This document shows positions 4,084-61,130 of a DNA stretch of 64,000 nucleotides, piece after piece. A model generated the notes under the pieces. The model worked only from the letters and a program-made list of their open reading frames with translations, searched no databases and had not been told where the DNA came from. A program made the position numbers and the translations under genes. How positions within the stretch are numbered: the stretch's first letter is position 1; each line of letters opens with the position of its first letter. Source of the stretch: Candidatus Poribacteria bacterium (lineage in GTDB: Bacteria > Poribacteria > WGA-4E > WGA-3G); the NCBI GenBank assembly GCA_963663765.2, contig CAXXUA010000015.1, forward strand, positions 64,001 through 128,000, written 5' to 3'.

Positions 4084-4698
4084 GGGTGCGTAAAGTTTTT
4101 GCACAGAGGTACTAACTTTTGTTCTCTTTAGTCCCGTAGGGACGCAATGTTTATAGAAAGACGTTATCACATCCCCTCTCTTTAGTTCCGTAGGAACGGC
4201 ATAGAAGGATAAACATATCGTCCCTACCAAATCAACGCCAAATGCGCGTATGGCATTTGTCGGGACTAAAAAGACGTGGGGATATGTATTTCTATAAACA
4301 TATCGTCCCTACGGGACTGAAGAATATGGTTAATATTAACAATATTTCTTTATATTGACACCTAATGAAGTTTGACCATCAAAATCGGTAGTTGTATTCG
4401 TAGGGGTTGGGTTCCCCAACCCGTTTGTTTCTTGAGTTTGCGTAGATCATTTGGGGAAACCACGCCGCGACGAATACACAACTTGAACGTCAAAACTCAT
4501 TAGGACTCTGTGTCCACAATCTCTCATTTAATCAGTTGCGGCGGGGCGCAGAGACTCGGGGAATGCCTAAAGAAGCATGCGCGTATGGCATGCTCCATGA
4601 TTCATACCCGGGGAATGCCAAAAGGCATTCATACCTTTGATTTCTTGATTTCGCCCTACAATGGAGAGTGGGATGTTGTGCAAAAACTTTACACACCC
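4084..4698. mobile_element. Non-autonomous ISKra4-type element containing nested REP/MITE units
   Basis: GGGTGCGTAAAGTTTTTG...CAAAAACTTTACACACCC match the TIRs of the IS at 24335-25792; 9-bp TSD ATCAGTAGT at 4075-4083 and 4699-4707. Confidence 0.88.
4361..4504. mobile_element. MITE family F with internal REP doublet
   Basis: CCTAATGAAGTTTGAC...GTCAAAACTCATTAGG inverted ends enclosing gtaggggttgggttccccaacccg. Confidence 0.6.
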
Positions 4699-4997
4699 AT
4701 CAGTAGTGAATATGACTTGATTTATACTGATTACAGTGTTATAATGCAAAAAAGTATAACATACAAAGTGACCATGTTTTAGATTCACATAGGTTACATT
4801 TTAGAATTTATTTGGGTTTCATAAACTTTTTGGTCTGTATCGTAAACGAACAGATCATACGTATCGTTATCTGTAGAAATCAACAATAGCATAGTAAACT
4901 GTAAACGAAAAAAGGGTGTATTTCAAAAACTCATTGGTGTGGGTCTTGATAGATAAAGAAGAGAACATGAGAATAACAAGCAAGTGAGGAATAAATT

Positions 4998-5777
4998 ATG
5001 AAACGCGCAATACATGGCACAATCTTAATTGTAGTGGTGTTATTGTTTTTTCTTGGAATCATGAGTAAGGAAAGTGACGCAGAAGTTACAAGTTTGAAAA
5101 TAGAGATTTCGGATGTCGTGAGTTTTAGGGATGCAATACAGATTAGACGTTTGCTTGCTCCGTGGGCAGACCCAGAAGATATTACCTTCCATACGCCTAT
5201 AGGTAAGAATGGGAAGAAAAGAGTGTTTACGACAGTCGTTGAAATAAAACCGAGATCTGGAGTATCTAAATACCGTGAGACACATACTTTTGATGTCTAC
5301 AACATTACGCGTCAGTTGAGGGATTCACGTTATCGGGGTCGGCACGGATTAGGACAAGTTCGACTTTTGAAGACTGAAGCAGAAATCAGAGGTGACATGT
5401 TTACACATCCTGGTTTCTCACGTGGCGGTATACGAGAAATACCTGCTTGGGCGCGTTGGAGACCGCAGACTTCCGAGATACATCATGCTTTAAGTGTAGG
5501 TCGTAGCGGACAGAATTTCGTCTTTAAGTCAACTCCTGAATTTGATCAACTTCGGCATGATGTTGTGAATAATAATAATAATAAGGTAGAAATACAGGGT
5601 GAGATTACCGGTTTTGATGGTCCGTATCCGATCATGCGTGTTCGTAGATATAAAGTCGGTTTTCGCGCCAAACAGCAATCTAAACCTACTGAATCACAAC
5701 CGATGAATGGTGAGCAACCCTCTGAGGAGCAAAAACCGAAGTACGACTATATTGAATTTAATCAACCAGATCGGTAG
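4998..5777 (+). CDS. Hypothetical exported protein
   Basis: GAGGA RBS, hydrophobic N-terminal signal/anchor, 259-aa ORF. Confidence 0.7.
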   Translation: MKRAIHGTILIVVVLLFFLGIMSKESDAEVTSLKIEISDVVSFRDAIQIRRLLAPWADPEDITFHTPIGKNGKKRVFTTVVEIKPRSGVSKYRETHTFDVYNITRQLRDSRYRGRHGLGQVRLLKTEAEIRGDMFTHPGFSRGGIREIPAWARWRPQTSEIHHALSVGRSGQNFVFKSTPEFDQLRHDVVNNNNNKVEIQGEITGFDGPYPIMRVRRYKVGFRAKQQSKPTESQPMNGEQPSEEQKPKYDYIEFNQPDR

Positions 5778-5792
5778 TAATGGCCTTTTACG

Positions 5793-6067
5793 CAGGACTT
5801 TCGCAGTTATCTTGATTTAATCAAGATATGTGATGAAAATGATGTAATTATCAGCATTTTTATGGGTTTTCAGAACGCTTTCAAAGCACCAAATCAAGAA
5901 ATCAACGGTATGAATGCCTTTTGACATTCCCCGGGTATGAATGCCTTTTGACATTCCCCGGGTATGAATGCCTTTTGACATTCCCCGGGTATGAATGCCT
6001 TTTGACATTCCCCGGGTATGAATGCCTTTTAGGCATTCACCGCCTACCGTTTCTGCGAAAAATCTTG
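5793..6067. mobile_element. MITE family A copy expanded by a 27-bp tandem repeat
   Basis: CAGGACTTTCGCAG left end and degenerate right end; ggtatgaatgccttttgacattccccg units at 5907, 5934, 5961, 5988 and 6015. Confidence 0.8.
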
Positions 6068-6117
6068 GTATTATTCTGTGTATTTTGGTTATAGACTCAC
6101 AGTGTGACGGAATAGTT

Positions 6118-7269
6118 TTATGCTTGAAAGCCACCAGTGTTAAACAAGACAATTTGATCAGAAGGATTGATTATACCTTTTTCCAATAGTGGATTGAGTG
6201 CAGCGACTGTAGCTGCACCTTCTGGACAAGTGAGTAAACCTTCTGTTGTAGGCAGTACTTGCATAGCATTGTGTATTGCATTGTCCGAGACTGCAATTGC
6301 AGCCCCCTTACTCTTGCGAACTGCTTCTAATATCAGAAAGTCCCCGATCGCTTGTGGTACTCGCAAACCGCTTGCGATTGTTTGTGCATCTATCCACGGT
6401 TCAGCAGTTTGCATATCCTTTTCCCATGCCTTTACAATAGGTGCACAACCCGCTGCTTGAACAGAGATGAATCGTGGTCTTTTTTTGCCTATCCAACCGA
6501 TTGCTTCCAATTCGTTAAACGCTTTCCACATTCCAACTATTCCTGTACCGCCACCTGTTGGGTATACGATAACATCAGGTAGTTTCCAACCAAGTTGTTC
6601 CGCGAGTTCAAACCCCATTGTTTTTTTACCTTCCACACGATATGGTTCTTTTAGCGTGGAAACATCAAACCATCCGTTATCTTCTTTTCTTTCAGCAACT
6701 ATCTTACCTGCATCTGTGATGAGACCATCAATCAAGGTAACATTTGCCCTCGCAAGTTGACATGTCTTTATATTAAAGGAGGGTGTATCCTTAGGCATAA
6801 ATATGTGTGCGGGAATACCAGCACATGCAGCATAAACTGACAAGGCAGTTGCTGCGTTTCCAGCAGATGGTATCGCTAAGTTTTTAATTTCAAGCTCTTT
6901 TGCTTTTGAGACAGCCATCGCCAAGCCTCGTGCCTTGAAACTACCAGTCGGTAAACGGGATTCATCTTTGATCCAAAGTTCTGGCAAACCGAGTTGATTA
7001 CCCAGTCTTTTTGCATGAACAAGAGGTGTAATCGTTTCAGCAAGAGATACTATGTTTGTAGTATTACAGATTGGTAGAAGTTCGCGATAACGCCAGAATG
7101 ATGGTTCTCTGGCAAGGAGTGAATTGGGTTTCCAAGTATTCGTTAATTCATCAAGATTATATCGCGCAAACAACGGTTTTCCACATGAATAGCAAACGTT
7201 TTGGGGTTTCTCATGAGGATAGATTTCTTTACATTTGCTACATTCAAGATGTTGTAAATAGTGCTTCAT
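6118..7269 (-). CDS. thrC: Threonine synthase (PLP-dependent)
   Basis: CSKC/CYSC N-terminus, PTGSFKARG (PLP lysine), PSAGNA, YPTGGGTG, CPEGAA. Confidence 0.88.
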   Translation of the reverse strand: MKHYLQHLECSKCKEIYPHEKPQNVCYSCGKPLFARYNLDELTNTWKPNSLLAREPSFWRYRELLPICNTTNIVSLAETITPLVHAKRLGNQLGLPELWIKDESRLPTGSFKARGLAMAVSKAKELEIKNLAIPSAGNAATALSVYAACAGIPAHIFMPKDTPSFNIKTCQLARANVTLIDGLITDAGKIVAERKEDNGWFDVSTLKEPYRVEGKKTMGFELAEQLGWKLPDVIVYPTGGGTGIVGMWKAFNELEAIGWIGKKRPRFISVQAAGCAPIVKAWEKDMQTAEPWIDAQTIASGLRVPQAIGDFLILEAVRKSKGAAIAVSDNAIHNAMQVLPTTEGLLTCPEGAATVAALNPLLEKGIINPSDQIVLFNTGGFQA

Positions 7270-7330
7270 GCTAAGTATTACTTGGGTGTAATTGAAACTG
7301 TCAGAGTTGAGTGAGATCACCACTGATTTC

Positions 7331-8425
7331 TTATTCTGCAGTCAATGATGTCCCTGTTTCTGGATGGAATAGATGGATTTTGTCAACATCAAAACTGACT
7401 GTCAATGATGTGTTGTTTTGTGGTAATGTTGATTGGTTCGTTTGTACAACAAAACTGTTTTTCTCAGTTCGTAGATAGAGGATGGTGTGATTTCCAAGTG
7501 GTTCAACAAGTTCTACATGCGCTTGAATCTGATTGTTACCATTACCGTTAACATGTATGTCCTCTGGACGGATGCCGAGTGTAACTGAGTTTTCTGAAAG
7601 TTTACTTAGACAAGATTGCATTGCATGATTCATATCTACCGTAAACTCCTCAATCCTCAGTTTAGAAGTGCCTCCGTTTTTTTCAATGTGAGTGTTAATC
7701 AAGTTCATCGGTGGCGTGCCGATAAAACCAGCAACGAATTTGTTAGCGGGTTTGTGATATAGTCTACTTGGTTTCGCAATCTGTTGGATTTTCCCCTCAT
7801 TGAGCACGACAATCTGATCTCCCATCGTCATTGCTTCAACTTGGTCGTGTGTGACATAAACAATCGTAGCATTGAGCCGGTCATGTAGACGACTAATTTC
7901 CATCCGCATTTGAACACGTAGCTTTGCATCAAGGTTGCTGAGTGGTTCATCAAATAAGAACACTTTTGGTTGTCGAACGATTGCTCTACCGACAGCGACC
8001 CGTTGACGTTCACCACCTGATAGTTTTTTCGGTTTGCGGTTCAATAAGTGCGTTATACTAAGTATTTCTGCTGCTTCATTTACACGTTGATCAATTTCGG
8101 TTTTAGGATATTTGCGGAGTTTCAATCCAAACGCCATGTTCTTGTATACCGTCATATGCGGATAGAGTGCATAGTTCTGGAAGACCATAGCGATATCTCT
8201 ATCTTTCGGGGGGATGTCATTAACGTGTTCGTCATCAATATAGATATCGCCTGAGGTAATCTCCTCAAGTCCAGCGATCATTCGCAAAATCGTGGATTTA
8301 CCACACCCCGATGGACCGACAAGTACAGTAAACGATTCATCGGGAATGTGGATACCTGCTTTATCAACAGCAAGAACATCACCATCATATATTTTTGTGA
8401 TGTCTTTCAATATGACTTGTGCCAT
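7331..8425 (-). CDS. Sugar ABC transporter ATP-binding protein, MalK/UgpC type
   Basis: GPSGCGKS, LSGGERQR, FLFDEPLSNLD, C-terminal TOBE region. Confidence 0.95.
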   Translation of the reverse strand: MAQVILKDITKIYDGDVLAVDKAGIHIPDESFTVLVGPSGCGKSTILRMIAGLEEITSGDIYIDDEHVNDIPPKDRDIAMVFQNYALYPHMTVYKNMAFGLKLRKYPKTEIDQRVNEAAEILSITHLLNRKPKKLSGGERQRVAVGRAIVRQPKVFLFDEPLSNLDAKLRVQMRMEISRLHDRLNATIVYVTHDQVEAMTMGDQIVVLNEGKIQQIAKPSRLYHKPANKFVAGFIGTPPMNLINTHIEKNGGTSKLRIEEFTVDMNHAMQSCLSKLSENSVTLGIRPEDIHVNGNGNNQIQAHVELVEPLGNHTILYLRTEKNSFVVQTNQSTLPQNNTSLTVSFDVDKIHLFHPETGTSLTAE

Positions 8426-8483
8426 TGTTCATCCTTTAGCAGATTTCTTGCGTTGAGAAATACGTAAATATGGGTCGGAAGAT

Positions 8484-8936
8484 CTACTTTTCTGCATTAA
8501 ACATCAAAGGTGTAAGAACAATGATAAATGGGATAATGAATATCAATGAATTTCTTGAGAGAAACGTTAATATATTGTCTTTTTTTCTCATTTTGATACG
8601 GTCAAAGATATCACCGCCGGGAGCAAGGACCTTAGATTTACCAACCCTCTCACCATACCCATCCTTAGAATAACTTACTGTGTAACGGCCAGCAGGTAAA
8701 TTCGCTAATTTGTACTCACCCTTTTTATCAGTTTGGGTAGTATATTCTTTTTCTGTCGCTAAAGATACAACTGTAACATTAACTCCGGGAATTGGATTTA
8801 ATTCAGGAGTTGTATCAACGACTGCACCTCTTATTGTTCCCCCGTTTACAGCCTTTACTTGTGCTGTCGTACTGCTATTTCCTAACAATATTATAAAAGC
8901 AACTAACATCAAGCTAGTAGCGTTACGAATAATCAT
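8484..8936 (-). CDS. Carboxypeptidase regulatory-like domain membrane protein
   Basis: Signal peptide; GTIRGAVVD...PIPGVNV...TDKKGEY...LPAGRYTV; C-terminal TM helix. Confidence 0.8.
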   Translation of the reverse strand: MIIRNATSLMLVAFIILLGNSSTTAQVKAVNGGTIRGAVVDTTPELNPIPGVNVTVVSLATEKEYTTQTDKKGEYKLANLPAGRYTVSYSKDGYGERVGKSKVLAPGGDIFDRIKMRKKDNILTFLSRNSLIFIIPFIIVLTPLMFNAEK

Positions 8937-10594
8937 TCTGTTTTCTCCTCCTGCTCATTTTCTGAGGTTATTTCTTGCTTTTCTGTTTCAGTTGAATTTG
9001 GTTGTTTTGCGAGGTTTTCCTTCACCAATTCTGCAACTGCAGTTTCAACATCAAAACCCCCGATACTCGCTGTTCGAATAGTACCTTCACCGTCAATCAG
9101 AAAAGCAGTTGGAATTCCTTTGACCCCAAATTCAGTTCTCACTTTACGGTCTTCGTCCCAATAATGAACCCACCCAAGTTCCTCTTTCTTAATGTAATCT
9201 TCAAGAGGTTGTTTAGTCTTATCAAGACTGATTCCGATAATCTGAAATTTCTGATCTTTGTGTTCTTGGAATGTCTTTTTGAGTTTTGGCATTTCTGCGA
9301 TACAGGGACCACACCATGTAGCCCAAAAATCAAGTAGTACAACTTGTCCACGATAGTCTTTCATTGATAGTTTATTGCCACTGATGTCCTTCACTTCTAA
9401 ATCAGGAACTTTTTTTCCAACCCATGCTTGCATTTTTTCCCTAAGTTGTTGCATTGAAATCGGATTCTGGGTTGTAGTTTCTTTTTTCTGTATCTTTAGT
9501 GCAGGTACTGACTTCATTTGTGTGCCTTTTGTAGGTAATTTGGATTCTGAGATAGCCGGTTTCGTAATATTCTCTTTCACCAATTTTGCGACTTCAGTTC
9601 CGAGTGCATCCCCACTAAGATTAGCTTTTCGGACAACACCTTTACCATCAATGAGAAACATTGATGGGATATCACTCACTTTATACTGCTGTGCAATTGA
9701 TTGGTTATGATCCCAATAATGTATCCAATTAAGACCTTCTTTTTTAATAAACGTATCAAGTTTTGTCTTTGAACTATCTAAACTAATCCCAATTATCTCG
9801 AATTTTTGATCTTTGTGTTTTTCATAAGTACGTTTCACGTTGGGTAATTCTGCGATGCATGGTCCACACCATGTAGCCCAAAAATCAAGGAGTATCACTT
9901 TTCCGCGATATTTTTCTAATGAGAGTTCTTTACCTTTTAGGTCTTTTACTTTAAAATCAGGTGCAGGTTTGCCTATTAAATTACTATTAGGACCTGCACT
10001 GACACCATCAGGTGTTGCCAATTTCCCATTTCTTTCAGACCTTTCCAGTATAAGAATCTGTTTTGCCTGCTTTGCATAAGATTTAGACCCAAATTTTGGG
10101 TGTTCTATCAGTTTGTTATAGATTTCATCAGCTTTATCGTGTTTACTCAGTTTGTCAAAAGCTAATCCTAATTCTAACAGACTGGGTTGGACATAGCGTG
10201 CATCAGGATGGTCTTTGATAAGTTTTTCAAAAGCCTTGATACCTTCTTTCACAAGTTCCATTCGGATATATCCGTTGCCAAGATAATAATATACCTCGTC
10301 AACACGTTTGTATTTAGGGAACATTGTGACGAAATTGTTTGCCTTATTAACTAAAACTGCTAAATCTTCAGGATCGTTTTCATTATTCAGTTTTTTGTAT
10401 ATAGCTTTTATTTCTTGATATGCAAAATTAATTTCTGCAGAAACTGCTTCTGTCTTTTCTGAAGTAGGTTCTGCGTGTATGGAATTGTTACTTAATCCAA
10501 TAGCCATAAGAATCACAAGTAAACTTAAACCTTTTACACATGAATTACACACATATTTTCTAATTTCGGTTGTTTTATAATGTAAATCCATCAT
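8933..10594 (-). CDS. TPR + tandem TlpA/redoxin-domain protein
   Basis: Signal, TPR helices, two DFWATWCGPC thioredoxin-like domains. Confidence 0.9.
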   Translation of the reverse strand: MMDLHYKTTEIRKYVCNSCVKGLSLLVILMAIGLSNNSIHAEPTSEKTEAVSAEINFAYQEIKAIYKKLNNENDPEDLAVLVNKANNFVTMFPKYKRVDEVYYYLGNGYIRMELVKEGIKAFEKLIKDHPDARYVQPSLLELGLAFDKLSKHDKADEIYNKLIEHPKFGSKSYAKQAKQILILERSERNGKLATPDGVSAGPNSNLIGKPAPDFKVKDLKGKELSLEKYRGKVILLDFWATWCGPCIAELPNVKRTYEKHKDQKFEIIGISLDSSKTKLDTFIKKEGLNWIHYWDHNQSIAQQYKVSDIPSMFLIDGKGVVRKANLSGDALGTEVAKLVKENITKPAISESKLPTKGTQMKSVPALKIQKKETTTQNPISMQQLREKMQAWVGKKVPDLEVKDISGNKLSMKDYRGQVVLLDFWATWCGPCIAEMPKLKKTFQEHKDQKFQIIGISLDKTKQPLEDYIKKEELGWVHYWDEDRKVRTEFGVKGIPTAFLIDGEGTIRTASIGGFDVETAVAELVKENLAKQPNSTETEKQEITSENEQEEKTE

Positions 10595-12319: not shown

Positions 12320-12339
12320 AAGAAAACTCCTTTTTTACA

Positions 12340-12521
12340 CAGGACTTACGTAAAAACGGTAGGTGGTGAATGCCTAAATGGTATTCATACCGTTGGTTTC
12401 TTAATTTCTTGATTTCTTGATTTGGTGCTTTGTAAGCGCGCTGGAAACCCTTAATAATGTTGATAATTACATCATTTTCATCACAATTCTTGATTAAATC
12501 AAGTAAACTGCGTAAGTCCTG
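12340..12521. mobile_element. MITE family A carrying the hairpin module
   Basis: TIRs present; TSD TTACA at 12335-12339 and 12522-12526. Confidence 0.9.
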
Positions 12522-12591: not shown

Positions 12592-13263
12592 CATAGGTAT
12601 TCAATTGTCACGAAGTATCTTTATTAGAGGACATTTCAACAATAGAATCCCAATAGATTATACATGATTTTTATTGTTCTCAAAACAAGAAGCACAACAA
12701 AACCACACCACCATAAGGTATAATATAACCCATACACAGAAAATAAATTCCAAACTTTTGGTCTTGTACAAATAAGGTGCACCAAAATGACAGACAGACA
12801 GACAAATCAAAGAACAAAAAAGCAGCTGACAAGTCCAAAACAGATACAAAAATACACTGTAAAAAACGATAATAAATCCACAGGACTTACGCAGTTTTCA
12901 CGATCCAATCAAGAATTAAGACGAAAACGATGTAATTTACAGCATTTTTTAGAGTTCCGGCGCGCTTACAAAGCACGCCTACCGTTGGGTGCGTAAGTCC
13001 TGATCCATTTAGTTGTTTTTTAAAATTACGTAAATTCAAAAAACCTTCATAAACCTATATCACAACAGTATCGAGAACATTTATGTAAAAAAACGCGCAA
13101 AAAACAACTAAAAATTTCCACAATGAGGACAGGATACACAAAATAGAGGTACTCAATTGTAGATTATTCACACACGCTAACATTATGATATTTCTGTAGA
13201 GGGAGAAAATTGGGGTAGTAAACTCCTACGACAAGAGTAAATTTCGACAATTGAATGTCTCTG
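12592..13263. mobile_element. Composite non-autonomous element, family C ends
   Basis: CATAGGTATTCAATTGTC...GACAATTGAATGTCTCTG with 9-bp TSD TTTCTGTGG at 12583-12591 and 13264-13272. Confidence 0.72.
12881..13002. mobile_element. MITE family A nested in the family C element
   Basis: Perfect 13-bp TIRs CAGGACTTACGCA; TSD ATCCA on both sides. Confidence 0.92.
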
Positions 13264-16601: not shown

Positions 16602-16621
16602 AGTCAATGATCTGATTTAAG

Positions 16622-16790
16622 TAGGACTTACGCACCCAACGGTAGGCGGGGAATGCCTAAATGCGAATGCGCGTATGGCATTCGCCATGATTCATACCGT
16701 TGATTTGGCGCAGGAAACCGAAAAAATGCTGAAAATTACCCCATTTTCGTCATAATTCTTCATCAAATCATGAAAACTGCGTAAGTCCTG
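16622..16790. mobile_element. MITE family A with doubly nested hairpin module
   Basis: TAGGACTTACGCA...TGCGTAAGTCCTG; TSD TTAAG on both sides. Confidence 0.9.
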
Positions 16791-16849
16791 TTAAGTATTT
16801 AGCATGAATCAATGAATTTTGTGGAATAGACATTCAGCATTGATAATTG

Positions 16850-20906: not shown

Positions 20907-21089
20907 GGGTGTGTAAAGTCTGGGTTACTGTACGTAGGGGCGGGGTCTCCCCAGCCGAACAGAGGCTTTATGTGGGCGAGGAGACCCCGCCCCTACGATG
21001 TCCACAGTCCCCTAACGTCAAGTAATTTTTGATAGAAACTGGACAGCCTTCTTCTAATATCAGAGTTTCTACAAAAACTTTACAAACCC
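20907..21089. mobile_element. Degenerate ISKra4-end MITE with REP doublet
   Basis: GGGTGTGTAAAGT...AAAACTTTACAAACCC enclosing cgtaggggcggggtctcc / ggagaccccgcccctacg; no TSD seen. Confidence 0.65.
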
Positions 21090-21453: not shown

Positions 21454-21966
21454 CAGGGTAATTCAGTTTTAAGAATCTATCCTTATGCCAGTAAACTTTG
21501 GGTTAAGATTAGTGGTTATATAGGATTTTCTGGTATTCTTAATTTTGGTCTGAACTAGGATTTTCATGATTAGTAGATTATCAATATATTTCTCATCAGA
21601 TCCTATTCCAAAAGAGGGCATAAACACATCATCAGGACTTACGCACCCAGTGGTAGGCGGTGAATGCCTAAACGGCATTCATACCCGGGGAATGCCAAAC
21701 GGCATTCATACCGTTGATTTCTTGATTTGGTGCTTTGTAAGCGCGCCGGAAACCTAAAAACTTCTGAAAATTGCATCGTTTTCGTCTTAATTCTTGATTG
21801 GATCATGAAAACTGCGTAAGTCCTGCACATATCAAAAACCCTTGACGAGGTAAAACCTGAAAATCTGGTAATCCTGAAAATCCTGGTTTAGAAAAAGAAC
21901 GGGTTAACTCAAGGATTAACAACTGTGATAGAATTTACTCAATAAATTGAAAACTGAATAACCCTG
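21454..21966. mobile_element. Family B-ended element with nested family A MITE (21633-21825)
   Basis: TIRs; CTTATCC on the left and CCCTTATCC on the right (partial 9-bp TSD); internal CAGGACTTACGCA...TGCGTAAGTCCTG. Confidence 0.78.
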
Positions 21967-27993: not shown

Positions 27994-28220
27994 ATACCAA
28001 TTCAAATAAATCTTGTCTCATTAAGGAATTCTACTGTTTACTGGCAGTGGGTTACTCTCTTCGGTAGGAGCGACCCGGGGAATGTCATACGCGCATTCAT
28101 ACCCGGGGAATGCCTAAATGGCATTCATACCGTTGATTTCTTGATTTGCCGGTCGCGACCGGGAGGTCGCTCCTACCAGAGTTCCGCTGCTAATGAGACA
28201 TTATCACATGAAAATGGTAT
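27994..28220. mobile_element. MITE family D (ATACCAATT ends), REP doublet interrupted by the hairpin module
   Basis: Inverted copy of 32080-32235 plus insert 28076-28148. Confidence 0.78.
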
Positions 28221-32079: not shown

Positions 32080-32235
32080 ATACCAATTCCATGTGATAAT
32101 GTCTCATTAACAGCGGAAATCTGGTAGGAGGGACCTCCCGGTCGCGACCGGGAGGTCCCTCCTACCGAAGAGAGTAACCCCCTGCCAGTAAACAGTAGAA
32201 TTCCTTAATGAGACAAGACTTATTTGAATTGGTAT
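32080..32235. mobile_element. MITE family D with intact REP doublet
   Basis: ATACCAATTC...GAATTGGTAT; perfect palindrome ggtaggagggacctcccggtcgcgaccgggaggtccctcctacc. Confidence 0.8.
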
Positions 32236-40693: not shown

Positions 40694-41737
40694 TTAATTC
40701 TTCTCTCGATATTCCTGCAATAGTGCTCTAATTTTGTCAAGGAATGCTTGCGAGTAGATATCACCAACCAAGGCATTTTGCGTTTCGACCGCAATAGCAT
40801 CCCAAGTTTCAAGTGCATCTTCATCAAACTCAACGATCTTAATGCCACCTTTTGTTGTCAATGCTTCAATTGCTTTGTCGTTATCTTTCCGGATTTCCAG
40901 AATCATTTTGTCCTGATATTTGTCCCCTACGTCACGTAAAGTCTCTTGCTGTGTAGGTGTAAGTTCATCATACTTTTTCTTAGTGATGACTGTTGCACCA
41001 ACACCAATACTTACCGGCAGGTTGGTCATATATTTAAATTTCTCGTGCCACTGCAACGCGACAGTTACATACGGGGATGCAGTCACTGCATTGAGTTGAC
41101 CTGAATAGAGTGAAGAATTGACTTGTGTAACCTCTCTCGGAACAGTTGCGATGTTTGCTTTCTTGTAAAATGTCTGAGCGATTTTGTCACTTGTTCGCGC
41201 CCACATCTTGACTTTCGGTGATTGCAAGTCAGCAATCGTACTTATTGGATGATTACTGAAGATATAGTAGAAACCAATATCTCCCATACCGATGAGAACA
41301 TAACCTGCATCCAAAAAGGCTTTATCCAAATCTTCGCGGAGAAAGTCACGAACATAGTCAAGTTCTTCGTAGTTTTTAAATAGACGTGGGAGTTGAAAAA
41401 TAAGTACCTCTTTCTGTATTTCGCCGAGTCCATTTGCTGTCATAGCCCCCGCATGAAGCAGCCCAGCACGCATCTTGCGAATAACATCAATTTCGTCTCC
41501 TTGAATACCGTTTGCGTAGAATCTGAATTTGATATTATCACCGGTTTTTGCTTTTAGTTCTTTTGCCATTGCATCGAAATTCTTCATCCAAGTAGAGCCT
41601 TTCGGTGCAAGCGTAGCAAACTTAATAGGATCAACAGCCCAAGTAGATTGCGGTAAACATACCATACTCACAATGACTAATAGCACACTCGCTAAAATTG
41701 CGGTGTGAATTCTATTGCTTGTTTTTTTATCGCTCAT
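40694..41737 (-). CDS. dctP: TRAP substrate-binding protein DctP (TatP-like)
   Basis: Signal peptide, IKFATLAPKGSTW, QGDEIDVIRKMR; adjacent to the T-component gene. Confidence 0.88.
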   Translation of the reverse strand: MSDKKTSNRIHTAILASVLLVIVSMVCLPQSTWAVDPIKFATLAPKGSTWMKNFDAMAKELKAKTGDNIKFRFYANGIQGDEIDVIRKMRAGLLHAGAMTANGLGEIQKEVLIFQLPRLFKNYEELDYVRDFLREDLDKAFLDAGYVLIGMGDIGFYYIFSNHPISTIADLQSPKVKMWARTSDKIAQTFYKKANIATVPREVTQVNSSLYSGQLNAVTASPYVTVALQWHEKFKYMTNLPVSIGVGATVITKKKYDELTPTQQETLRDVGDKYQDKMILEIRKDNDKAIEALTTKGGIKIVEFDEDALETWDAIAVETQNALVGDIYSQAFLDKIRALLQEYREKN

Positions 41738-49671: not shown

Positions 49672-49817
49672 CTTACGCAAAAACGGTAGGCGTGCTTTGT
49701 AAGCGCGCTGGAAACCCATAAAAACGCTGATAATTGCATCATTTTCATCATAATTCTTGATTAAATCAAGAAAACTGCGTAAGTCCTGATTAAAACAAGA
49801 AAACTGCGTAAGTCCTG
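49667..49817. mobile_element. MITE family A with duplicated 29-bp right end
   Basis: CATGACTTACGCA...GTAAGTCCTG twice (ends 49788 and 49817); TSD TCCGC/TCCAC. Confidence 0.88.
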
Positions 49818-53983: not shown

Positions 53984-54632
53984 CAGGGTTATTCAGTTTT
54001 CCTAATGTTTGGATTTTTCCAAAAATAACCCCGCGGTAGGAGCGACCTCCCGGTCGCGATTTTCTCAGGAAACGAGTAAAACTCCTAAAACTGAATAACC
54101 CTGCGCACTCAATCAGGGTTATTTAGTTTTCCTAATGTTTGGATTTTTCCAAAAATAACCCCGCGGTAGGAGCGACCTCCCGGTCGCGATTTTCTCAGGG
54201 AACGAGTAAAACTCCTAAAACTGAATAACCCTGCGCACTCAATCAGGGTTATTTAGTTTTCCTAATGTTTGGATTTTTCCAAAAATAACCCCGCGGTAGG
54301 AGCGACCTCCCGGTCGCGATTTTCTCAGGGAACGACTAAAACTCCTAAAACTGAATAACCCTGCGCACTCAATCAGGGTTATTCAGTTTTCCTAATGTTT
54401 GGATTTTTCCAAAAATAACCCCGCGGTAGGAGCGACCTCCCGGTCGCGATTTTCTCAGGGAACGACTAAAACTCCTAAAACTGAATAACCCTGCGCACTC
54501 AATCAGGGTTATTTAGTTTTCCTAATGTTTGGATTTTTCCAAAAATAACCCCGCGGTAGGAGCGACCTCCCGGTCGCGATTTTCTCAGAAAACGACTAAA
54601 ATGCCTAAAACTGAATATAACTGCCACTCAAT
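53984..54632. repeat. Tandem array of five family B MITEs (130-bp period)
   Basis: Units at 53984, 54114, 54244, 54374 and 54504; each 120 bp TIR-bounded with REP core; constant linker CGCACTCAAT. Confidence 0.95.
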
Positions 54633-54640
54633 ATACTTTC

Positions 54641-54669
54641 TTGACACCCATGCTCAACTATGCTAACCT
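54641..54669 (+). promoter_or_regulatory. Sigma70-type promoter for the AAA-nuclease operon
   Basis: TTGACA-17-TAACCT with TG extension; AAGGA RBS follows. Confidence 0.55.
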
Positions 54670-54702
54670 AAGAAAGTAAAAACATCCGATAAGGAAATTG
54701 AT

Positions 54703-56328
54703 ATGAGACGTTTCGGTACAACGGGTCCAGTACATCCTGAAAAGCATTATGTTGTCAGACGTTCTGAGGAGCTTGATGACTTCATTGCACGCGTCAAAGA
54801 TGGACGATATATCGTTATATTTGCCCCACGACAGACAGGTAAGACTACCTTTTTTCGCAATGCACTTGATGAAATTGCAGACAGCGATCCAGTTTACTTC
54901 CCAATTTCATTGAATTTTGAGGAATATGTTGGTGAATCTTTATCGGATTTCTACAACAATCTTACTCATGATTTAATTGATGAAATTGAATCAGTTTTGA
55001 AAAAAAGAGAATTGCTAACAACAAATACACTTCAAGGTCTAATAGAAAATTCTCAATTAACTAGCCACCAAACAATGCGTAGATTCTTTGGGGATTTAGA
55101 AGAAAATTTAAGAGTAGATTACGGTGTTTACCGTGTAATTCTAATAATAGACGAATTTGATGGTATCCCACAAGAGGTATTAGCAGGTTTTCTTCATTCA
55201 CTCCGTCGAATCTATGTTTCAAATTCCACATCAAAATGTCCTCACAGTGTCGGAATAGTCGGTGTAAAAAGTATTGCACAACTCAACTATGACCGATCAA
55301 TCTCTCCATTCAATATCCAAGATGAGTTTAACCTCCCAAATTTTACACTTGTACAGGTGAATGAACTCCTGCAACAGTACACGGAAGAAGTTGGTCAACA
55401 CTTTGAATCAGAAGTGATTGAATCTATCCATAAACAGACTGCAGGACAGCCTTTCCTTGTCAACCGACTGGCACAAATATTGACTGATGAAATGGACATA
55501 CCTAAGACCGAAACAATTACTTTGACGCATTTCACAACAGCACATAATAAACTAATTCATGAACGTAATACCAATATTGACCATCTAACAACAAATTTCC
55601 GTAGAAATCGACGCTTTGAAAAAATTCTGATGCGAATAACAGCCTTTGATGATGGTTTACCTTTCAACTTGCGTGATGACCAAATCAGTGAACTCGCAAC
55701 CTTTGGGGTAATAAAGCAAGGCGTGGACGGTATGTGTGAAATTGCTAATCCCATATACTTTTATTGTATTGTTCAAACATTTAAACCGACAATAAATGGT
55801 TTGGAGGAAGCATATCACCCAGAAGACACCAGAGACGGTTTTCTTGATTACCTATCAAATACTGGACATATTGATATGAACGCATTGCTTGATAATTTCA
55901 GAGATTTCATCGCTCGATCGGGATTTAATATATTACAGGTCCCTGACACACCCCAGGAATCTGTTGGACGCCATTTACTTCTTGCCTACCTTGAGCAGTT
56001 TGTTCTGTTAGTGGGTGGATTTATGCATATTGAAGTGCAAACAGGACACGGTAGATTGGACTTACTCATCACACACAAGCATCGAAAATACATCGTTGAG
56101 ACAAAAGTTTGGAGAGGAGAAATCAGTTATCAGAAAGGATTGAACCAACTTGCTTCATATCTAAGGTTAGAAAATGCAACCGAGGGGTACTATGTAGTCT
56201 TTGATCACCGCACAAATCCAGAACCACGCTCTGAAAACCATGAAATTGATGGCTATAATATACGAAGTTATGTAATACCTGTAATGCAGAAACGACCCTC
56301 AGTTGGGAGTCTTGACGTAAAAAAGTGA
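54703..56328 (+). CDS. AAA ATPase (AAA_35-like) with C-terminal PD-(D/E)XK nuclease domain
   Basis: Walker A APRQTGKT, Walker B LIIDEFD, SPFNI, GQPFLVN; C-terminal EVQTGHGRLDL...IVETK...QLASY. Confidence 0.88.
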   Translation: MRRFGTTGPVHPEKHYVVRRSEELDDFIARVKDGRYIVIFAPRQTGKTTFFRNALDEIADSDPVYFPISLNFEEYVGESLSDFYNNLTHDLIDEIESVLKKRELLTTNTLQGLIENSQLTSHQTMRRFFGDLEENLRVDYGVYRVILIIDEFDGIPQEVLAGFLHSLRRIYVSNSTSKCPHSVGIVGVKSIAQLNYDRSISPFNIQDEFNLPNFTLVQVNELLQQYTEEVGQHFESEVIESIHKQTAGQPFLVNRLAQILTDEMDIPKTETITLTHFTTAHNKLIHERNTNIDHLTTNFRRNRRFEKILMRITAFDDGLPFNLRDDQISELATFGVIKQGVDGMCEIANPIYFYCIVQTFKPTINGLEEAYHPEDTRDGFLDYLSNTGHIDMNALLDNFRDFIARSGFNILQVPDTPQESVGRHLLLAYLEQFVLLVGGFMHIEVQTGHGRLDLLITHKHRKYIVETKVWRGEISYQKGLNQLASYLRLENATEGYYVVFDHRTNPEPRSENHEIDGYNIRSYVIPVMQKRPSVGSLDVKK

Positions 56329-56337
56329 GGATTGAAA

Positions 56338-57099
56338 ATGCAATTCTGTACAGTGTGTAAGCAATTTGCTGACTATGAATATGATATTGCCCTGTCCAAT
56401 GGAAACCACTTACATTCTTCTTGTCTAATCAAGCTCCAAATGCGTGAAGATGAAATTGAGGTTAAACTACGAAGACGAAGCTCACAATTGATTCTGTCTC
56501 TCTTTGCAAAGTCTGAAGCTGTAGAAAGAGATGTTATATCTGAGGAAGAGGTGAGAAATTTATCAACTGAACTGACAAAAATAAAGAACACTTTAACTTC
56601 CATTTTTGACTTCTTTCCGATTTGTCCGCCGGATTGGGATGAACGTAAACGCTACCTTATCCAACTGAACGGTTCGATCTGTTTCAGTTGTGAAGAAGAA
56701 GGTGATGTTTTTCTGATACATGAGATTCCTTTATGTGAATACGGAACGAATGAGTTGGATAACCTTGAATTGATTTGTAAACCTTGTCATGAGAGTATGT
56801 ATGGTAAGAGTGATGTTTTTGGGAACTTTACCCTGAATTCGTCCCAATCAGAGTTTTCAGAGCAAGTGGCAGAAATCCAATCTGCTATGCACAACAATCA
56901 GAGAATTCGATTTGACTATAAAAAACCGAAAGCTAAGACGTGGATGACGCGCGTGGTTGTCCCAGAACGTTTACTAAATATTCCTAACAGTCGCGAGTCT
57001 GGTGAGACATTGTGCGTTGAGGGATACTGCGAATTGCGTCAAGCTAACCGGGTTTTTGCACTTGAACGGATGCAAGATTTAGAAGTAATAGAGGGTTAA
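56338..57099 (+). CDS. Zn-finger + HNH-like + WYL-domain protein
   Basis: CTVC...HSSC; CFSC...IHEIPL...GTNELDNLELICKPCH; IRFDY...TRVVVP...EGYCELRQANRVFALERM; GAGGA RBS overlaps the upstream stop. Confidence 0.82.
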   Translation: MQFCTVCKQFADYEYDIALSNGNHLHSSCLIKLQMREDEIEVKLRRRSSQLILSLFAKSEAVERDVISEEEVRNLSTELTKIKNTLTSIFDFFPICPPDWDERKRYLIQLNGSICFSCEEEGDVFLIHEIPLCEYGTNELDNLELICKPCHESMYGKSDVFGNFTLNSSQSEFSEQVAEIQSAMHNNQRIRFDYKKPKAKTWMTRVVVPERLLNIPNSRESGETLCVEGYCELRQANRVFALERMQDLEVIEG

Positions 57100-57271
57100 T
57101 CGGAATCGCTGATTTCGCGGATAAGACAGCAGCATTAGATGGCATGGTATGAGATAAGCTTTAACTAAGCAATACCACCTCAAGCAGGGACCAATCCATG
57201 TAACCTGTGATTCAGTCTAAACCGATGATATTAACCTGTATATTTCCGTGCGATGCTGTGCATTTCACATC

Positions 57272-58855
57272 TTATACGGTTTGCAAGTTGCTTATAGAAA
57301 GCAACCAGGGTTCATCTACCAAAGCACGCAAAAATATCCCGCGTGCGCCATTCAAGTCTCTGTCCATCTTGAGTCCCATGCTATCTTTTATTATCTTTCG
57401 TCCACCGAGTGATTTTCTAATCTCACCATTCCACGACACTGTTTTTGATGTGTATGCTTCACAGACATCAATGACGAGACATCCAGTCTCTTTCGCTTTG
57501 TGCTTTAGAAAATGTTTGAATCTGTAGTGCGACAGTGTCAACATTTGTCGGGCAGACTTCTTGTGTAGTTTGCGGTTTCCACGCATTACCATATCTGAAG
57601 TCTCAAAAGTAGGGAGTAGGATAATATCAAAGGTATCCACAAGGAAACGTGCTATTTTATGATGCAACTCGTCAACAAGATATCTGATACGTTTTCTGAT
57701 GCGATTTGCAGCACGTCTCATATTCTTGCGTGATTGTTGTGTCGCTTTTATTGCACGGGATAAAAGATTATCAAGGTATGAACAAAGTCTTTGAATCCGA
57801 TTGATAGCATGGTGTCCAAGCCATCCGAAACCACGCTCATGGAAATATGTGAGGAATGTTCTCACGCCAGGGTCTAAAGCAACAACACTTCCGTTTGGTT
57901 TTCGCTTCGGAGTTGTCACAGTATAGGAAACACAGAGATAGTATTTATCATTCTCTTTCACGAGGCGTGAGTCACAGATATTATCAGGTAACATCTCTGA
58001 CATTTTGAGATCACCAAGCACTGTGTGATAAACACCGCGAGGTTTTATAGCAGACTTTGGTATGAAAATACTATCTGATGGATGACGTTTGGATTTGAAA
58101 AAAACAGACTGATATTGACCTGTTTTCTTGCATTTTCGCTTTGCTTCTCGGACAGCAATACAAGCGTCACGGATAGCAACAGATTTCACTTGATACGGTG
58201 TTTCTTTGCTCCAATCAGGAAGATCGTGAAGAATACCTGTTTTTATCGCTTTCCAATTCGCTTTTGTGTCTGTTTCGTTCAACAAAGCAATTGTTTTATT
58301 ATAAGTAAAACGTGCTGTGCCAAACCACTGACGCAGTGTTTCACGTTGTTCTGTTGTCGGATAGACTCTTATCTTCTTTGATTTTGTCACGGTAACTTCG
58401 GAGTCCGTGCATTCTGTAACTGAAGACGTGCAGGATTGCGAGAAGATCCGACGTGAGTTCTTCTTGCGGACTGTGTTCTGTTTGATCGAGAACCACGAGT
58501 TCGCCACCGTTTTGTTCAATGAGGTATTGTATAAGGTCGATACCGAAGCGGGCGAGTCTATCCCGATGGGCAATAACAACTTTGAGCTTATCACCTTGCA
58601 TAAGCCGTTCCAATAAGGTTCTAAGCCCTTTTCTTTTGAAGTTGATTCCGCTTCCGATGTCTCGGATAACTTCTGCTTCAGGGTAGATACTTCGCATATA
58701 TTCAACTTGTCGTTCAAGGTCTTCTCTTTGCTTTGTGCTGGATACTCTGCAGTAGCAAACAGTTGCAATTGATTTGGATTTGCTTTTGATGTATCCGTCA
58801 ACATCATAGCGTCTGTGTCCGCCTCCTGTGCGGATAATATCAATCTTTCCTTCAT
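57272..58855 (-). CDS. tnpB: TnpB RNA-guided nuclease, rearranged-RuvC (pro-Fanzor-like) type
   Basis: KIRVYPT, WFGTARFTYN, ALDPGVRTF, IILLPTFE, VCEAYTSKT, DRDLNGARGI; GGAGG 7 nt before ATG 58855 (alternative GTG at 58390). Confidence 0.9.
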   Translation of the reverse strand: MKERLILSAQEADTDAMMLTDTSKANPNQLQLFATAEYPAQSKEKTLNDKLNICEVSTLKQKLSETSEAESTSKEKGLEPYWNGLCKVISSKLLLPIGIDSPASVSTLYNTSLNKTVANSWFSIKQNTVRKKNSRRIFSQSCTSSVTECTDSEVTVTKSKKIRVYPTTEQRETLRQWFGTARFTYNKTIALLNETDTKANWKAIKTGILHDLPDWSKETPYQVKSVAIRDACIAVREAKRKCKKTGQYQSVFFKSKRHPSDSIFIPKSAIKPRGVYHTVLGDLKMSEMLPDNICDSRLVKENDKYYLCVSYTVTTPKRKPNGSVVALDPGVRTFLTYFHERGFGWLGHHAINRIQRLCSYLDNLLSRAIKATQQSRKNMRRAANRIRKRIRYLVDELHHKIARFLVDTFDIILLPTFETSDMVMRGNRKLHKKSARQMLTLSHYRFKHFLKHKAKETGCLVIDVCEAYTSKTVSWNGEIRKSLGGRKIIKDSMGLKMDRDLNGARGIFLRALVDEPWLLSISNLQTV

Positions 58856-58928
58856 TTGCCAACCTCCGTAAATGGTCAGGTGTATAATCCAGCAGCTCAC
58901 TTGCTTTGCGCGCTGATACATAAGTCAT
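58341..58928 (-). CDS. tnpA: IS607 serine recombinase TnpA
   Basis: MerR-like HTH, RTGGGHRRY, YCRVSSTKQ, DIGSG, HRDRLARFG. Confidence 0.95.
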   Translation of the reverse strand: MTYVSARKASELLDYTPDHLRRLANEGKIDIIRTGGGHRRYDVDGYIKSKSKSIATVCYCRVSSTKQREDLERQVEYMRSIYPEAEVIRDIGSGINFKRKGLRTLLERLMQGDKLKVVIAHRDRLARFGIDLIQYLIEQNGGELVVLDQTEHSPQEELTSDLLAILHVFSYRMHGLRSYRDKIKEDKSLSDNRTT

Positions 58929-58934
58929 GTATAT

Positions 58935-58963
58935 AGTATCACATAAATATCAAGGAATGTCAA
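58935..58963 (-). promoter_or_regulatory. tnpA promoter, probably leaderless transcript
   Basis: TTGACA-17-GATACT with TG extension, 6 nt before the ATG; no RBS. Confidence 0.55.
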
Positions 58964-59274
58964 GAAATATGTAGATATTTAGATACTGTCACTCTACCCT
59001 CAATTCAGATAACACCTTGCAAAAACTTTTCATACCAGTTCAAACAATACCCTTGACCCACACATCAGCACCCGCTAAAATACACCTATGCAGAAACTCA
59101 ACCACCGACCCACAAACAGATCCGCGACGACTACGCCACGTTACAACAATACGTATATAGCTATAAGTTAGAGACTTAATAAACAATAATCAAGGAATTT
59201 CAACAGAGTTATTTTTCGTGAAATTTGAGTATTAGTTTACATTTCAACAATTTACCATATTGGCTGTCATGTAA

Positions 59275-60994
59275 CCTACACTCCGCAGTTATGGATCTGG
59301 AAAATAGACATTTTTTACTTCTATGCCTAAAATGTTGATGATTTGTGTGTGTATTTCATTTAAATTTAATATAGACCTTTGTATATGTTCGTTTTGTTCT
59401 ATCAATAATACATCAACGCCTTCAAACATTTGAAAAATACGCCTGAGTGTTGGTTTTTGCGTGGGTTTACCAACTTGGTTAGGTATTGTTTGTTCTTGTT
59501 TTTTTAGCTCTTGCCGAACCCATCGTTCGGCAAGAGCGTATACAAGTAAAGAAAGTCCCATCACCATCAGTAATGCCATAATCCGCTGGGGTTTTTCAAG
59601 ATATAGACTATCGGCAAAGAATAAGGGGTCTTTCAAAAACCGAAAACCGCGTTCTACAGACACGTTCTGTGCTTTATATGCTTCAAGGATAGTCGCATCG
59701 TCAAGTAAAGTTGTATCCAGTTCATTGGTAGCTAAGACAAATCGGCCTTTGCTGCGTTTGAGTTTTTCAATCGTTTCTATATCATCAATAACTTCACCTT
59801 CAACCCGATAACGAAAATGTGTCGGTTTATCTGTCTTTTTGGGGCGTCCCGATGTAGTGTAATGTGGAACAGAAATAATGGAGAAACGAAGTTTATGATA
59901 TTTCCATGACTTGGCAAGGACTGTTGCCGCAGCTGCCGCAGCTGTATCGGTCTCATACGTTTTATTTTGTAAACGATTGAGTGATGTTTGTGCAGTTGTC
60001 TGTGCTTTGTCAATCTTTTTTACTAAAGTTGCCACTTCACGATGATACGCAGTTTGTGAATAAACAACTAACCACCTTTGTGGAACATCCGCATAGGTGC
60101 TATCTACTGATAGATAACTATATCCATCAAGAGATGCTGGCTGCATATCTTCAGTCGAAATAGTTTGGTAGAGTTCTTTGACAGCTTTGAGTGTTTCCGG
60201 CACACGCGTAATAAAACGCACATCACGCAGCTTCGCAATGTTTTGTGCTGTATAAAGCGCACTATCCGCTACAAAATAAGGTGCATCACTGCCACGCAGT
60301 TGAGACAAATATTCTCGGATCGTGTTGGGAAAACTTGTTTTATCAGACTGATTTCCATCAAGTGCTTTGAACCATACAGGGAACTGAGACCGATAAGAAC
60401 AGAGAAGTTGAACTACCACTTGTTTGAGATCCGGACGCTGATCGCGACTATACCCGTGGGTAATGTGAATAGCGTGTTCATCAACTGTTTCGGTATCATA
60501 GTTCCCCTGAAAACTAAACGTGGTGCTATCCAGATGAACAAAACGATGGTCAATCTCATAAGTTGATAATGCTTTAGAAGCAACTGTTGCAAAAAGTTCG
60601 GTAACACCATTTTCATAAAGTGTATCTAAAGCACGCCCAAGACAATCGTCCGTGAAATCGGCAGCACAGAGATGAGGGCGTATCAATAGATCCACCGGTT
60701 TATTTGAAAAAAACTCAGGTGTCAAGTAGAGTGGGCGTGAGACAAAGCCTAAAGCATTCAAGATCATAGCAACAACAGATTCACCCACTGAAACTTTCCG
60801 TTTCGTTGGGGAAATAAAAGTATCAATAGTGTTTATCAAGTCAATACGATCACATACACCAGCTACTATTCCGAGGTGATCTAAACGTTGTGTTGTAAAA
60901 GTAGATTGAGTGATGATGTTATACTCCTTATATAAAGATATAAAGAGTATAACATAAATACTTAAAATCCGATTAAACAACTGCGGAGTGTAGG
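59275..60994 (-). mobile_element. Intact IS1634-family IS
   Basis: Perfect 16-bp TIR CCTACACTCCGCAGTT; 6-bp TSD ATGTAA. Confidence 0.93.
59289..60980 (-). CDS. IS1634-family DDE transposase (start uncertain)
   Basis: LDHLGIVAG, HLDSTTF, HGYSRDQRPDLKQ, GNQSDK, VADSALY, VERGFRFLKDP. Confidence 0.93.
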   Translation of the reverse strand: MFNRILSIYVILFISLYKEYNIITQSTFTTQRLDHLGIVAGVCDRIDLINTIDTFISPTKRKVSVGESVVAMILNALGFVSRPLYLTPEFFSNKPVDLLIRPHLCAADFTDDCLGRALDTLYENGVTELFATVASKALSTYEIDHRFVHLDSTTFSFQGNYDTETVDEHAIHITHGYSRDQRPDLKQVVVQLLCSYRSQFPVWFKALDGNQSDKTSFPNTIREYLSQLRGSDAPYFVADSALYTAQNIAKLRDVRFITRVPETLKAVKELYQTISTEDMQPASLDGYSYLSVDSTYADVPQRWLVVYSQTAYHREVATLVKKIDKAQTTAQTSLNRLQNKTYETDTAAAAAATVLAKSWKYHKLRFSIISVPHYTTSGRPKKTDKPTHFRYRVEGEVIDDIETIEKLKRSKGRFVLATNELDTTLLDDATILEAYKAQNVSVERGFRFLKDPLFFADSLYLEKPQRIMALLMVMGLSLLVYALAERWVRQELKKQEQTIPNQVGKPTQKPTLRRIFQMFEGVDVLLIEQNEHIQRSILNLNEIHTQIINILGIEVKNVYFPDP

Positions 60995-61019
60995 ATGTAA
61001 ATATCTTGTTCTTTTCTTT

Positions 61020-61130
61020 GGTAGGAGGGACCCCGGGAATGCCGTAAGGTATTCACACCGTTGATTTACTTGTCAGGACTGTTTTAATACATGGTCTCCA
61101 TACGGTCGCGACTAGCAGGTAGCTCCTACC
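61020..61130. repeat. Degenerate REP doublet carrying the hairpin module
   Basis: ggtaggagggacc...ggtcgcgac...ctcctacc with gaatgccgtaaggtattcacaccgttgattt inserted. Confidence 0.65.

Follow-up and report, generated by a model that had tools for sequence, protein, structure and literature searches.

A non-coding hairpin module of about 36 nucleotides nested in the hairpin repeats of Candidatus Poribacteria and apparently gained there as a unit

The window analyzed here, a 64,000-nt stretch of contig CAXXUA010000015.1 in a metagenome-assembled genome (MAG) of Candidatus Poribacteria (G000; 6.35 Mb, 15 contigs, ~41% G+C), carries in its intergenic DNA a small hairpin module that interrupts other hairpin-forming repeats, above all repetitive extragenic palindromes (REPs) tagged with GTAG. 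The module is ~36 nt in size and contains no open reading frame (ORF), so it has no transposase of its own. The best explanation, which we hold with moderate confidence, is that it is a non-coding element that is gained as a unit in hairpin loops and moved in trans. That the module is a separate micro-element and that it has been gained repeatedly are well supported: the same ends are found in at least 12 unrelated contexts of this genome, with more contexts in the related genomes G024 and G016, and module-free copies of the host exist in all seven contexts tested. The module is thus a unit in its own right and not a part of its hosts, as the preliminary description of the window had proposed.

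In the following, coordinates are window positions, U denotes the hairpin unit, and T denotes the octamer [G/C]TTGATTT. The main module reads GGGGAATGCC-loop-GGCATTCATACC, then GTTGATTT with 0 to 5 extra CTTGATTT octamers and usually a terminal G, and its 7-bp stem, GAATGCC/GGCATTC, is flanked by GGGG and ATACC. The 20-mer that spans the joint of unit and tail, GGCATTCATACCGTTGATTT, matched the window seven times at up to three mismatches, compared with zero matches in 100 shuffles. When folded as single-stranded DNA (ssDNA), the unit forms the 7-bp stem on both strands, with energies of -7.0 and -7.3 kcal/mol versus about -3.0 +/- 1.5 kcal/mol for shuffled sequences, and the bottom strand presents a GGTATG tag followed by the hairpin, exactly as had been described. 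Double changes in the stem outnumber the corresponding single ones, with A-T found 26 times versus 15 for G-T and 8 for A-C at one stem pair, and T-A 51 times versus 10 for T-G and 7 for C-A at another, these counts including copies related by descent. The ssDNA fold indicates that the hairpin of the module is kept, and the stem changes are compensatory. More than half of the units (379/653) match one or another of six master sequences exactly. Neither terminal inverted repeats (TIRs) nor a target site duplication accompany the module, and no Rfam family reached its gathering score in a search of the window. Two other identities were considered and rejected. An intrinsic terminator does not fit because the T-rich tail begins 6 nt past the stem and not directly behind it, and where the two flanking genes are co-directional they run in the same orientation as the module in 137 cases and in the opposite one in 155, which is no preference. 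The motifs of integron attC sites, of dif/Xer sites, and of IS91 targets, compared at the level of the consensus only, do not fit either.

The whole genome was parsed into U and T elements, which gave 565 candidate arrays. An array was accepted as bona fide when it had a tail, at least two units, or no more than one mismatch in 19 anchor bases, a rule that removed, besides one chance match mentioned below, 60 others of the 87 tail-less single units, those with at least two mismatches, and left 653 units in 504 arrays, grouped in 462 blocks. The forms UT (248 arrays), UTT (91), UUTT (68), and UTTT (18) were found along with only four UUT arrays. Stop-free frames of at least 150 codons make up 80% of the genome, yet the midpoints of just 80 of the 565 raw arrays fall inside them, and of the 504 bona fide arrays, the 43 that lie within proxy ORFs are either in short ORFs that arose from repeats or at the edges of ORFs. 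The module is, therefore, nearly all intergenic, and like a REP it is a short extragenic palindromic repeat present at high copy number. Most cases of a module inside an ORF arise because repeat arrays create spurious ORFs. The same effect is produced by the REP arrays that flank an intact gene for a REP-associated tyrosine transposase (RAYT-1), where long spurious ORFs with repeated peptide motifs are found (L005 2470-2790, contig C4 of G000).

The host contexts of the 462 blocks are diverse. REP-A hairpins, the main hosts, contain 178 blocks at site 1 (GGTAGGC|GTGCTTTGTAAGCGCGC) and 27 at site 2 (TTTGTAGGC|GCGCTGGAA). A further 59 blocks lie in the loop, after CATAC, of a sister "type 2" hairpin inside the GTAGGGAC REP, 32 in a palindrome that we call family D, 23 in the GTAGGGCG REP with the module in opposite orientation, 18 in the REP type that flanks RAYT-1, and 33 in tracts of the heptamer AATCCTG. 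The remaining 92 blocks comprise many double-filled REP-A hairpins, at least five further families, other non-GTAG hairpins, and some unique-looking sites. Inspection of the sequences places the insertion points in the loop of the host hairpin or a few bases from it. The module had been described as occurring only inside GTAG-REPs. Every copy in the window does interrupt a GTAG-tagged hairpin, and genome-wide such hairpins host the majority of the blocks, at least 337 of 462; GTAGG or CCTAC occurs within 40 nt of 319 blocks, compared with 103.0 +/- 7.2 of 462 random non-ORF positions. The blocks in AATCCTG tracts, in non-GTAG hairpins, and in unique-looking DNA show, however, that the enrichment in GTAG-REPs is real and the exclusivity is not.

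Empty copies are plentiful. We counted 383 for REP-A (commonest spacer), 63 for the type 2 loop, 847 for family D (short spacer), 79 for the RAYT1-type REP, 36 for the GTAGGGCG REP, and 66 for the AATCC tract. Comparison of filled with empty copies defines the insert as GGGG...GATTT(G). At a clean joint, GCCATAC|GCGCATTTGG becomes GCCATAC[GGGG...GATTTG]GCGCATTTGG with no duplication, and clean joints are found at REP-A site 1, in the type 2 loop, at GAGACCC|CGCCCTAC, and in G024 at GTAGGAGGGAACTCC|GATTCCCGAC. The left flanks are of the types ..AGGC, ..ATAC, ..ACC(C), and ..TCC(C). Comparison of the junctions yielded as the sole constant across contexts a C at position -1, and no fixed tetra- or pentanucleotide was found beyond it.

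Evidence for recurrent gain or loss comes from family A, a ~115-nt miniature inverted-repeat transposable element (MITE) with TIRs and target site duplication, which is the host of most window copies. The MITE at 16617-16790 has the TIR GGACTTACGCA...TGCGTAAGTCC and TTAAGTA on both sides, and a contig of run X6, which matches the rest at ~98%, joins position 16616 to 16791. The family A MITE itself is polymorphic between strains because this whole MITE is missing from the X6 contig. The genome contains 263 copies of family A, 240 of which could be parsed at both module sites, and all four combinations of sites 1 and 2 were present: 131 empty/empty, 69 filled/empty, 24 empty/filled, and 16 filled/filled. 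A tree was then built from the backbones of 229 copies, the modules and the junction base having been removed, and on it the filled state required 65 changes at site 1, versus 64.2 +/- 2.7 with shuffled labels, and 34 changes at site 2, versus 36.2 +/- 1.6, whereas eight control columns of backbone single-nucleotide polymorphisms (SNPs), each excluded from its own tree, required only 3-29 changes versus 36.7-62.0. Because the control SNPs cluster and the filled state does not, the tree is informative and the presence of the module is not inherited with the MITE lineage. Descent of the filled family A copies from one filled ancestor, a possibility that the preliminary description had itself raised, is rejected, and the module has been gained or lost recurrently. 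The result fits re-insertion and short-tract conversion alike and does not distinguish between them. The tail octamer, as CTTGATT(T/A), is also seen in a subterminal palindrome of the MITE, TTCTTGATTAAATCAAGAA (49745-49775 and 5800-5830), which may be chance.

The module also nests in itself. The numbers of U and T rise together, UT and UUTT being common and UUT rare, and multi-unit arrays are direct tandems (UU, UT-UT, and UUTT), not the inverted doublets characteristic of REPINs, the doublet form of REPs. Subtypes were compared in 55 of the 68 UUTT arrays. Among these, the first unit belongs to the subtype resident in its context in 8/8 cases for type 2, 3/3 for the RAYT1-type REP, 7/8 for REP-A site 2, and 16/20 for REP-A site 1, and the subtype of the second unit varies. 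This pattern is as expected if a second unit, together with its tail, enters the CATACC joint of a resident element, but it could equally be produced by copying of a UUTT donor. Some loops are context-specific, such as CTTAATG in 46/68 type 2 units and CAATAG in 18/24 units of the RAYT1-type REP, and the common subtypes CTAAATG and CAAAAG are found in nearly every context. Sister hairpins share the same tail: 128 tails follow CATTTGGC in type 2, and a type 3 is present in 12-14 copies. Inverted hairpins with a GCGTATG loop occur inside module loops in 54 + 22 genome copies, and those at 4572-4600 and 16662-16690 reuse the resident 3' arm (GGCAT) and resemble fold-back copying more than clean insertion.

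The copies in the window and their empty counterparts are compiled in Table 1. Each of the eight places cited in the preliminary description holds the structure described, but the first of them turned out to be the sister hairpin and not the main module; the empty alleles claimed for REP-A and family D are indeed present. A parser match at 41217-41241 was a chance match and was dropped. Another long GC-rich palindromic REP (GTAGGGGCGGGGTCTCCCC...GGAGACCCCGCCCCTAC, 20935-21000) is free of the module.

Table 1. Module copies and module-free host repeats in the window
Feature	Position	Strand	Structure and host
Sister type 2 hairpin, closed form	4228..4261	-	CAAATGC-CATACGC-GCATTTG plus GCGTTGATTTG; tail GTTGATTTG common with the main module; nested in GTAGGGAC/GTCCC REP
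Composite array	4558..4651	+	Unit 4558-4609, its loop holding an inverted GCATGC-GCGTATG-GCATGC hairpin; second unit 4610-4635; two tail octamers (4610-4651 = UTT); host is a GGCGGGG/CCCCGCC hairpin, interrupted in its 3' arm; read on the opposite strand, this hairpin is the GTAGGGCG REP
Array UUUUUTT (five units, two tail octamers)	5891..6041	-	REP-A site 1 (GGTAGGC|GTGC), within family A MITE
Array UTTTT (one unit, four tail octamers)	12365..12423	+	REP-A site 1, family A MITE
One unit enclosing an inverted GCGAATGC-GCGTATG-GCATTCGC hairpin, one tail octamer	16648..16706	+	Inside family A MITE 16617-16790
Array UUTT	21659..21728	+	REP-A site 1, family A MITE
Array UUTT	28077..28147	+	5' arm of family D palindrome (GGTAGGAGCGACC...GGTCGCTCCTACC)
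Degenerate UT, single unit and tail	61034..61067	+	Family D palindrome bearing another unrelated insert
Empty REP-A hairpin	262..285	-	Family A MITE copy 182-303
Empty REP-A hairpin	12960..12983	-	Family A MITE copy 12881-13002
Empty REP-A hairpin (GGTAGGCGTGCTTTGTAAGCGCGC)	49685..49708	+	Family A MITE copy
Empty family D palindrome	32123..32166	.	Window sequence

From these observations we propose that the module would be gained as a unit in other hairpin repeats, its own copies included, at fixed positions that lie in the loops or within a few bases of them, its ends staying constant and no target duplication being made, and that after insertion it would spread passively whenever the host MITE or REP multiplies. 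The target is likely to be DNA that is transiently single-stranded and folded, and an enzyme acting in trans might recognize the hairpin together with its CATAC/GTATG flank. HUH tyrosine enzymes such as RAYTs or IS200-type transposases are the textbook candidates for such a role, and the preliminary description had linked the module to RAYTs, while stating correctly that no RAYT gene is in the window. The genome has six Y1_Tnp matches, located on contigs C3, C4, C5, and C10. One of the two RAYT genes, RAYT-1, is intact (NF047646, 121 bits versus a cut-off of 80) and is flanked by GTAGGAGGGAACTCC REP arrays; the other, RAYT-2, lies in the last 1.6 kb of contig C10 (L006 840-1632), is frameshifted and truncated by the contig end, and is preceded by an array of about ten REP-A units (CAGGCGTGCTTTGTAAGCGCGC), of which one contains the module. 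This suggests that RAYT-2 has REP-A as its cognate REP, and both genes are flanked by REP families other than the module. The genome also contains three intact copies of an IS605 element (tnpA + tnpB) and one further copy that is disrupted by another insertion sequence. Genes for TnpB alone adjoin modules in 3 of 27 cases. These 27 TnpB-only (IS1341-like) copies are scattered genome-wide, for example at C13:577044-578234, and transposase families of 25 and of 14 members are also present.

A number of results weigh against our proposal, and most of them concern the enzyme. In a survey of 40 genomes of the genus, which yielded 66 RAYT matches, 30 of them fetched as loci, no locus (0/30) had a module unit within 1.5 kb of the RAYT gene, one having a tail-like match, and thus none of these RAYT genes is flanked by the module in the way that a RAYT is flanked by its cognate repeat. 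The number of RAYT matches did not rise with the copy number of the module (rho -0.18, p 0.28, n = 38). No Y1_Tnp match at E <= 0.001 was obtained in G024, G001, or G010, which have 186, 120, and 136 matches to the 20-mer, respectively, the assemblies being 92-97% complete, so that the absence is unproven. No match to IS110 (PF01548), the other class of gene that the preliminary description had suggested looking for beside the hairpin, was found in this genome. The ends of the three IS605 copies form hairpins of their own, CCCCATGC.../CCCCTGCC..., without relation to the module, which speaks against derivation from IS200/IS605. Among multi-copy gene families beside modules, searched by megablast, none was enriched, transposases included, except for tandem paralogue clusters of WD40 lipoproteins and of a small secreted/membrane protein. 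The gene data, in short, do not support an HUH/RAYT-type enzyme for the module, and the proposed RAYT link is unsupported. Strand bias, which would be a mark of single-strand transposition, is weak and uninformative: the orientation relative to local GC skew is 293 versus 204 (59%), and empty hosts have an equally weak bias. Moreover, no locus was observed to differ by presence of the module alone, in material where the closest genomes are ~85% identical and short-read contigs break at repeats. G016 and G045, the closest genomes, are ~82-90% identical in genes, but their intergenic DNA is unalignable and whole host MITEs are missing at matching sites, and among the sequencing-run contigs, which stop at repeats, the only gap bridged is that of the whole MITE in X6.

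The structure of some joints belongs with these objections. Unclean joints lose one to three target bases, as in GTAGG-AG-CGATC, which becomes GTAGG-C-[module]-CGATC, and in G024, where AGG is replaced when GTAGG-AGG-GAACTCC becomes GTAGG-C-[module]-GAACTCC. Immediately left of REP-A site 2, 32/39 filled copies have the triplet GGC, whereas 189/190 empty ones have AGC, a shift that is easier to explain by copying from a donor flanked by GTAGGC than by precise cut-and-paste. Insertion may require GGC as its target, or else the module may bring along a few bases of the donor's GTAGGC flank. Such joints are what would be expected if no dedicated enzyme existed and the module were copied from one hairpin repeat to another in the course of replication or repair, through template switching or short-tract gene conversion guided by microhomology (left, GTAGG or ACC; right, the TTGATTT tail). 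GTAGGC likewise stands in place of GTAGGAG or GTAGGAGG at two other hosts, and the left-flank types are few and resemble the junctions within arrays (..AGGC, ..ACC(C), and ..ATAC). UUTT differs from UT by an inserted block and a G-to-C change, both of which are copyable from a UUTT donor, the inverted hairpins in module loops reuse the resident 3' arm as fold-back synthesis would, and 120-186 copies exist in genomes without Y1 gene matches. However, the first filled copy in each of the at least 12 contexts with unrelated flanks is beyond the reach of homology-dependent conversion, the homology on the right-hand side is often one base, and conversion alone leaves the retention of the exact 20-mer in two genera unexplained. 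We, therefore, regard enzyme-free copying as a serious but rather doubtful account of the module. That the module and its sister hairpins are moved without an HUH/Y1 transposase, either by a conserved host enzyme or by replication-coupled copying into hairpin loops, is also conceivable, though we judge it improbable.

The distribution of the module bears on another possibility, that it is a site useful to the host, such as a protein-binding or RNA element, whose mobility is old and whose copies are maintained by selection. Scanning at no more than one mismatch detected the 20-mer in all 37 genomes sampled from the genus, each having between 2 and 468 matches and this genome the most, and in 50/57 genomes of a sister genus. 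Three further genera of the family, represented by five genomes, had none (0/5), and other families had it in 1/51 genomes, as one copy. Within the genus, coding DNA is only ~67-90% identical. All public records that match the 20-mer are MAGs of Candidatus Poribacteria or uncultured Poribacteria except for one "uncultured bacterium," and the host of the module is a sponge symbiont. The copies are unevenly spread in G024, a single contig, where ~35 of 89 exact 20-mer matches lie in a module-dense island of ~115 kb (C1:4351000-4465000). Conservation in 87/94 genomes of two genera would be understandable for a selected site, as would the compensatory changes in the stem, the presence of copies in genomes without Y1 gene matches, and a modest enrichment in divergent intergenic regions, which contain 115/452 arrays compared with 459/3047 of all intergenic gaps; the 8-nt repeat of the tail, by analogy, might resemble an iterated binding site. 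A range of copy number from 2 to 468 within one genus is, on the other hand, difficult to reconcile with such a role, and most copies lie within other selfish repeats instead of at fixed positions relative to genes, with no preferred orientation toward them (155 versus 137). The distance between stem and T-rich tail is unlike that of a textbook intrinsic terminator, and the window lacks an Rfam match. Selection for a host function is, in our judgment, quite improbable as the main explanation. The idea that the module is only a passive passenger, inserted once in the ancestor of each host family and then multiplied with it, gains something from the context-specific subtypes (CTTAATG and CAATAG) and from the joint absence of MITE and module from the X6 contig, which indicates that composites move, but it is hardly tenable in view of the four site combinations in family A, of a filled state that is unclustered on a tree where control SNPs cluster strongly, and of the CTAAATG and CAAAAG subtypes shared by nearly every context.

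A gain of the module as a unit, as we propose, invites comparison with known mobile elements. IS200/IS605 elements and their hairpin-ended miniature derivatives depend on hairpins, insert beside a short fixed sequence without target duplication, and may form head-to-tail arrays. The module is similar in being hairpin-based, in lacking target duplication, and in occurring in arrays, but it has one hairpin and not two different ends, and no fixed tetra- or pentanucleotide was found in its targets beyond the C at -1. It is also unlike a TIR-bounded MITE, since it lacks both TIRs and a duplication, which its host family A has. In Nostocaceae, the small dispersed repeats SDR4-6, which are shorter than 40 nt, reportedly behave as mobile units, as Elhai et al. 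are said to have described in 2008, and we know of no transposase for them. The likeness lies in very small size, apparent mobility, and precise insertion into another short repeat, the last being exemplified by SDR5, which, according to papers citing the original work, enters HIP1 precisely after its third base and before its fourth (PMC4390886, PMC5861425). Phylum, sequence, and target are different, and the module at most works alike, a comparison made by description only. REP hairpins are preferred, position-specific targets also for insertion sequences, and ISPsy8, ISPa11, ISPpu9/10, and ISRm22 are among the examples given by Tobes & Pareja (2006, PMC1525189). The preliminary description names IS1397 and IS621 as further ones. 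Such elements are of kilobase size with their own transposase, whereas the module is a 36-nt non-coding sequence.

The closest relatives in behavior are the REPs themselves. GTAG- and CGTC-tagged REPs were defined by Di Nocera et al. (2013, PMC3733652), whose examples of REPs within other palindromes include GTAG-15 of A. variabilis and GTAG-23 of T. roseum, the latter with hundreds of empty targets, and the definition of REPINs and their link to RAYTs are among the contributions of Bertels & Rainey (2011, PMC3116915), who also searched for excised REPINs by deep sequencing. Like these repeats, the module is a short extragenic hairpin with hundreds of copies, tandem clusters, and nesting in other palindromes, and a conserved unpaired motif precedes its stem on the 5' side (GGTATG on the bottom strand of the module, GGTAGG in the host REPs). 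The tag of the module is, however, GTAT and not GTAG, the GTAGGC seen on the top strand to the left of many copies belonging to, or being shared with, the host REP; its units stand in direct tandem and not as inverted doublets, with a tail of octamer repeats attached; and no module-flanked RAYT was found among the 30 loci, three genomes with 120-186 copies having no Y1 gene match. The module works like REP-type elements, yet it departs from REPs and REPINs in tag, in doublet form, and in the matter of a cognate RAYT. A literature search found no description of REP-like repeats of Poribacteria.

Provided that gain of the module by itself is genuine, it would be among the smallest mobile DNA units known, and its target would be folded hairpins and not plain sequence. 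If it is moved without an HUH/Y1 transposase, it would represent a self-nesting mobile unit with a mechanism not yet described in bacteria. A hairpin-directed insertion activity that leaves no duplication might also be of interest as a tool once the enzyme is found. With filled and empty sites numbering in the hundreds, this one genome offers a natural system to study how REP-like repeats spread and whether they need RAYTs, and the module explains the repeats-within-repeats character of the intergenic DNA of Poribacteria and the breaks of short-read assemblies there.

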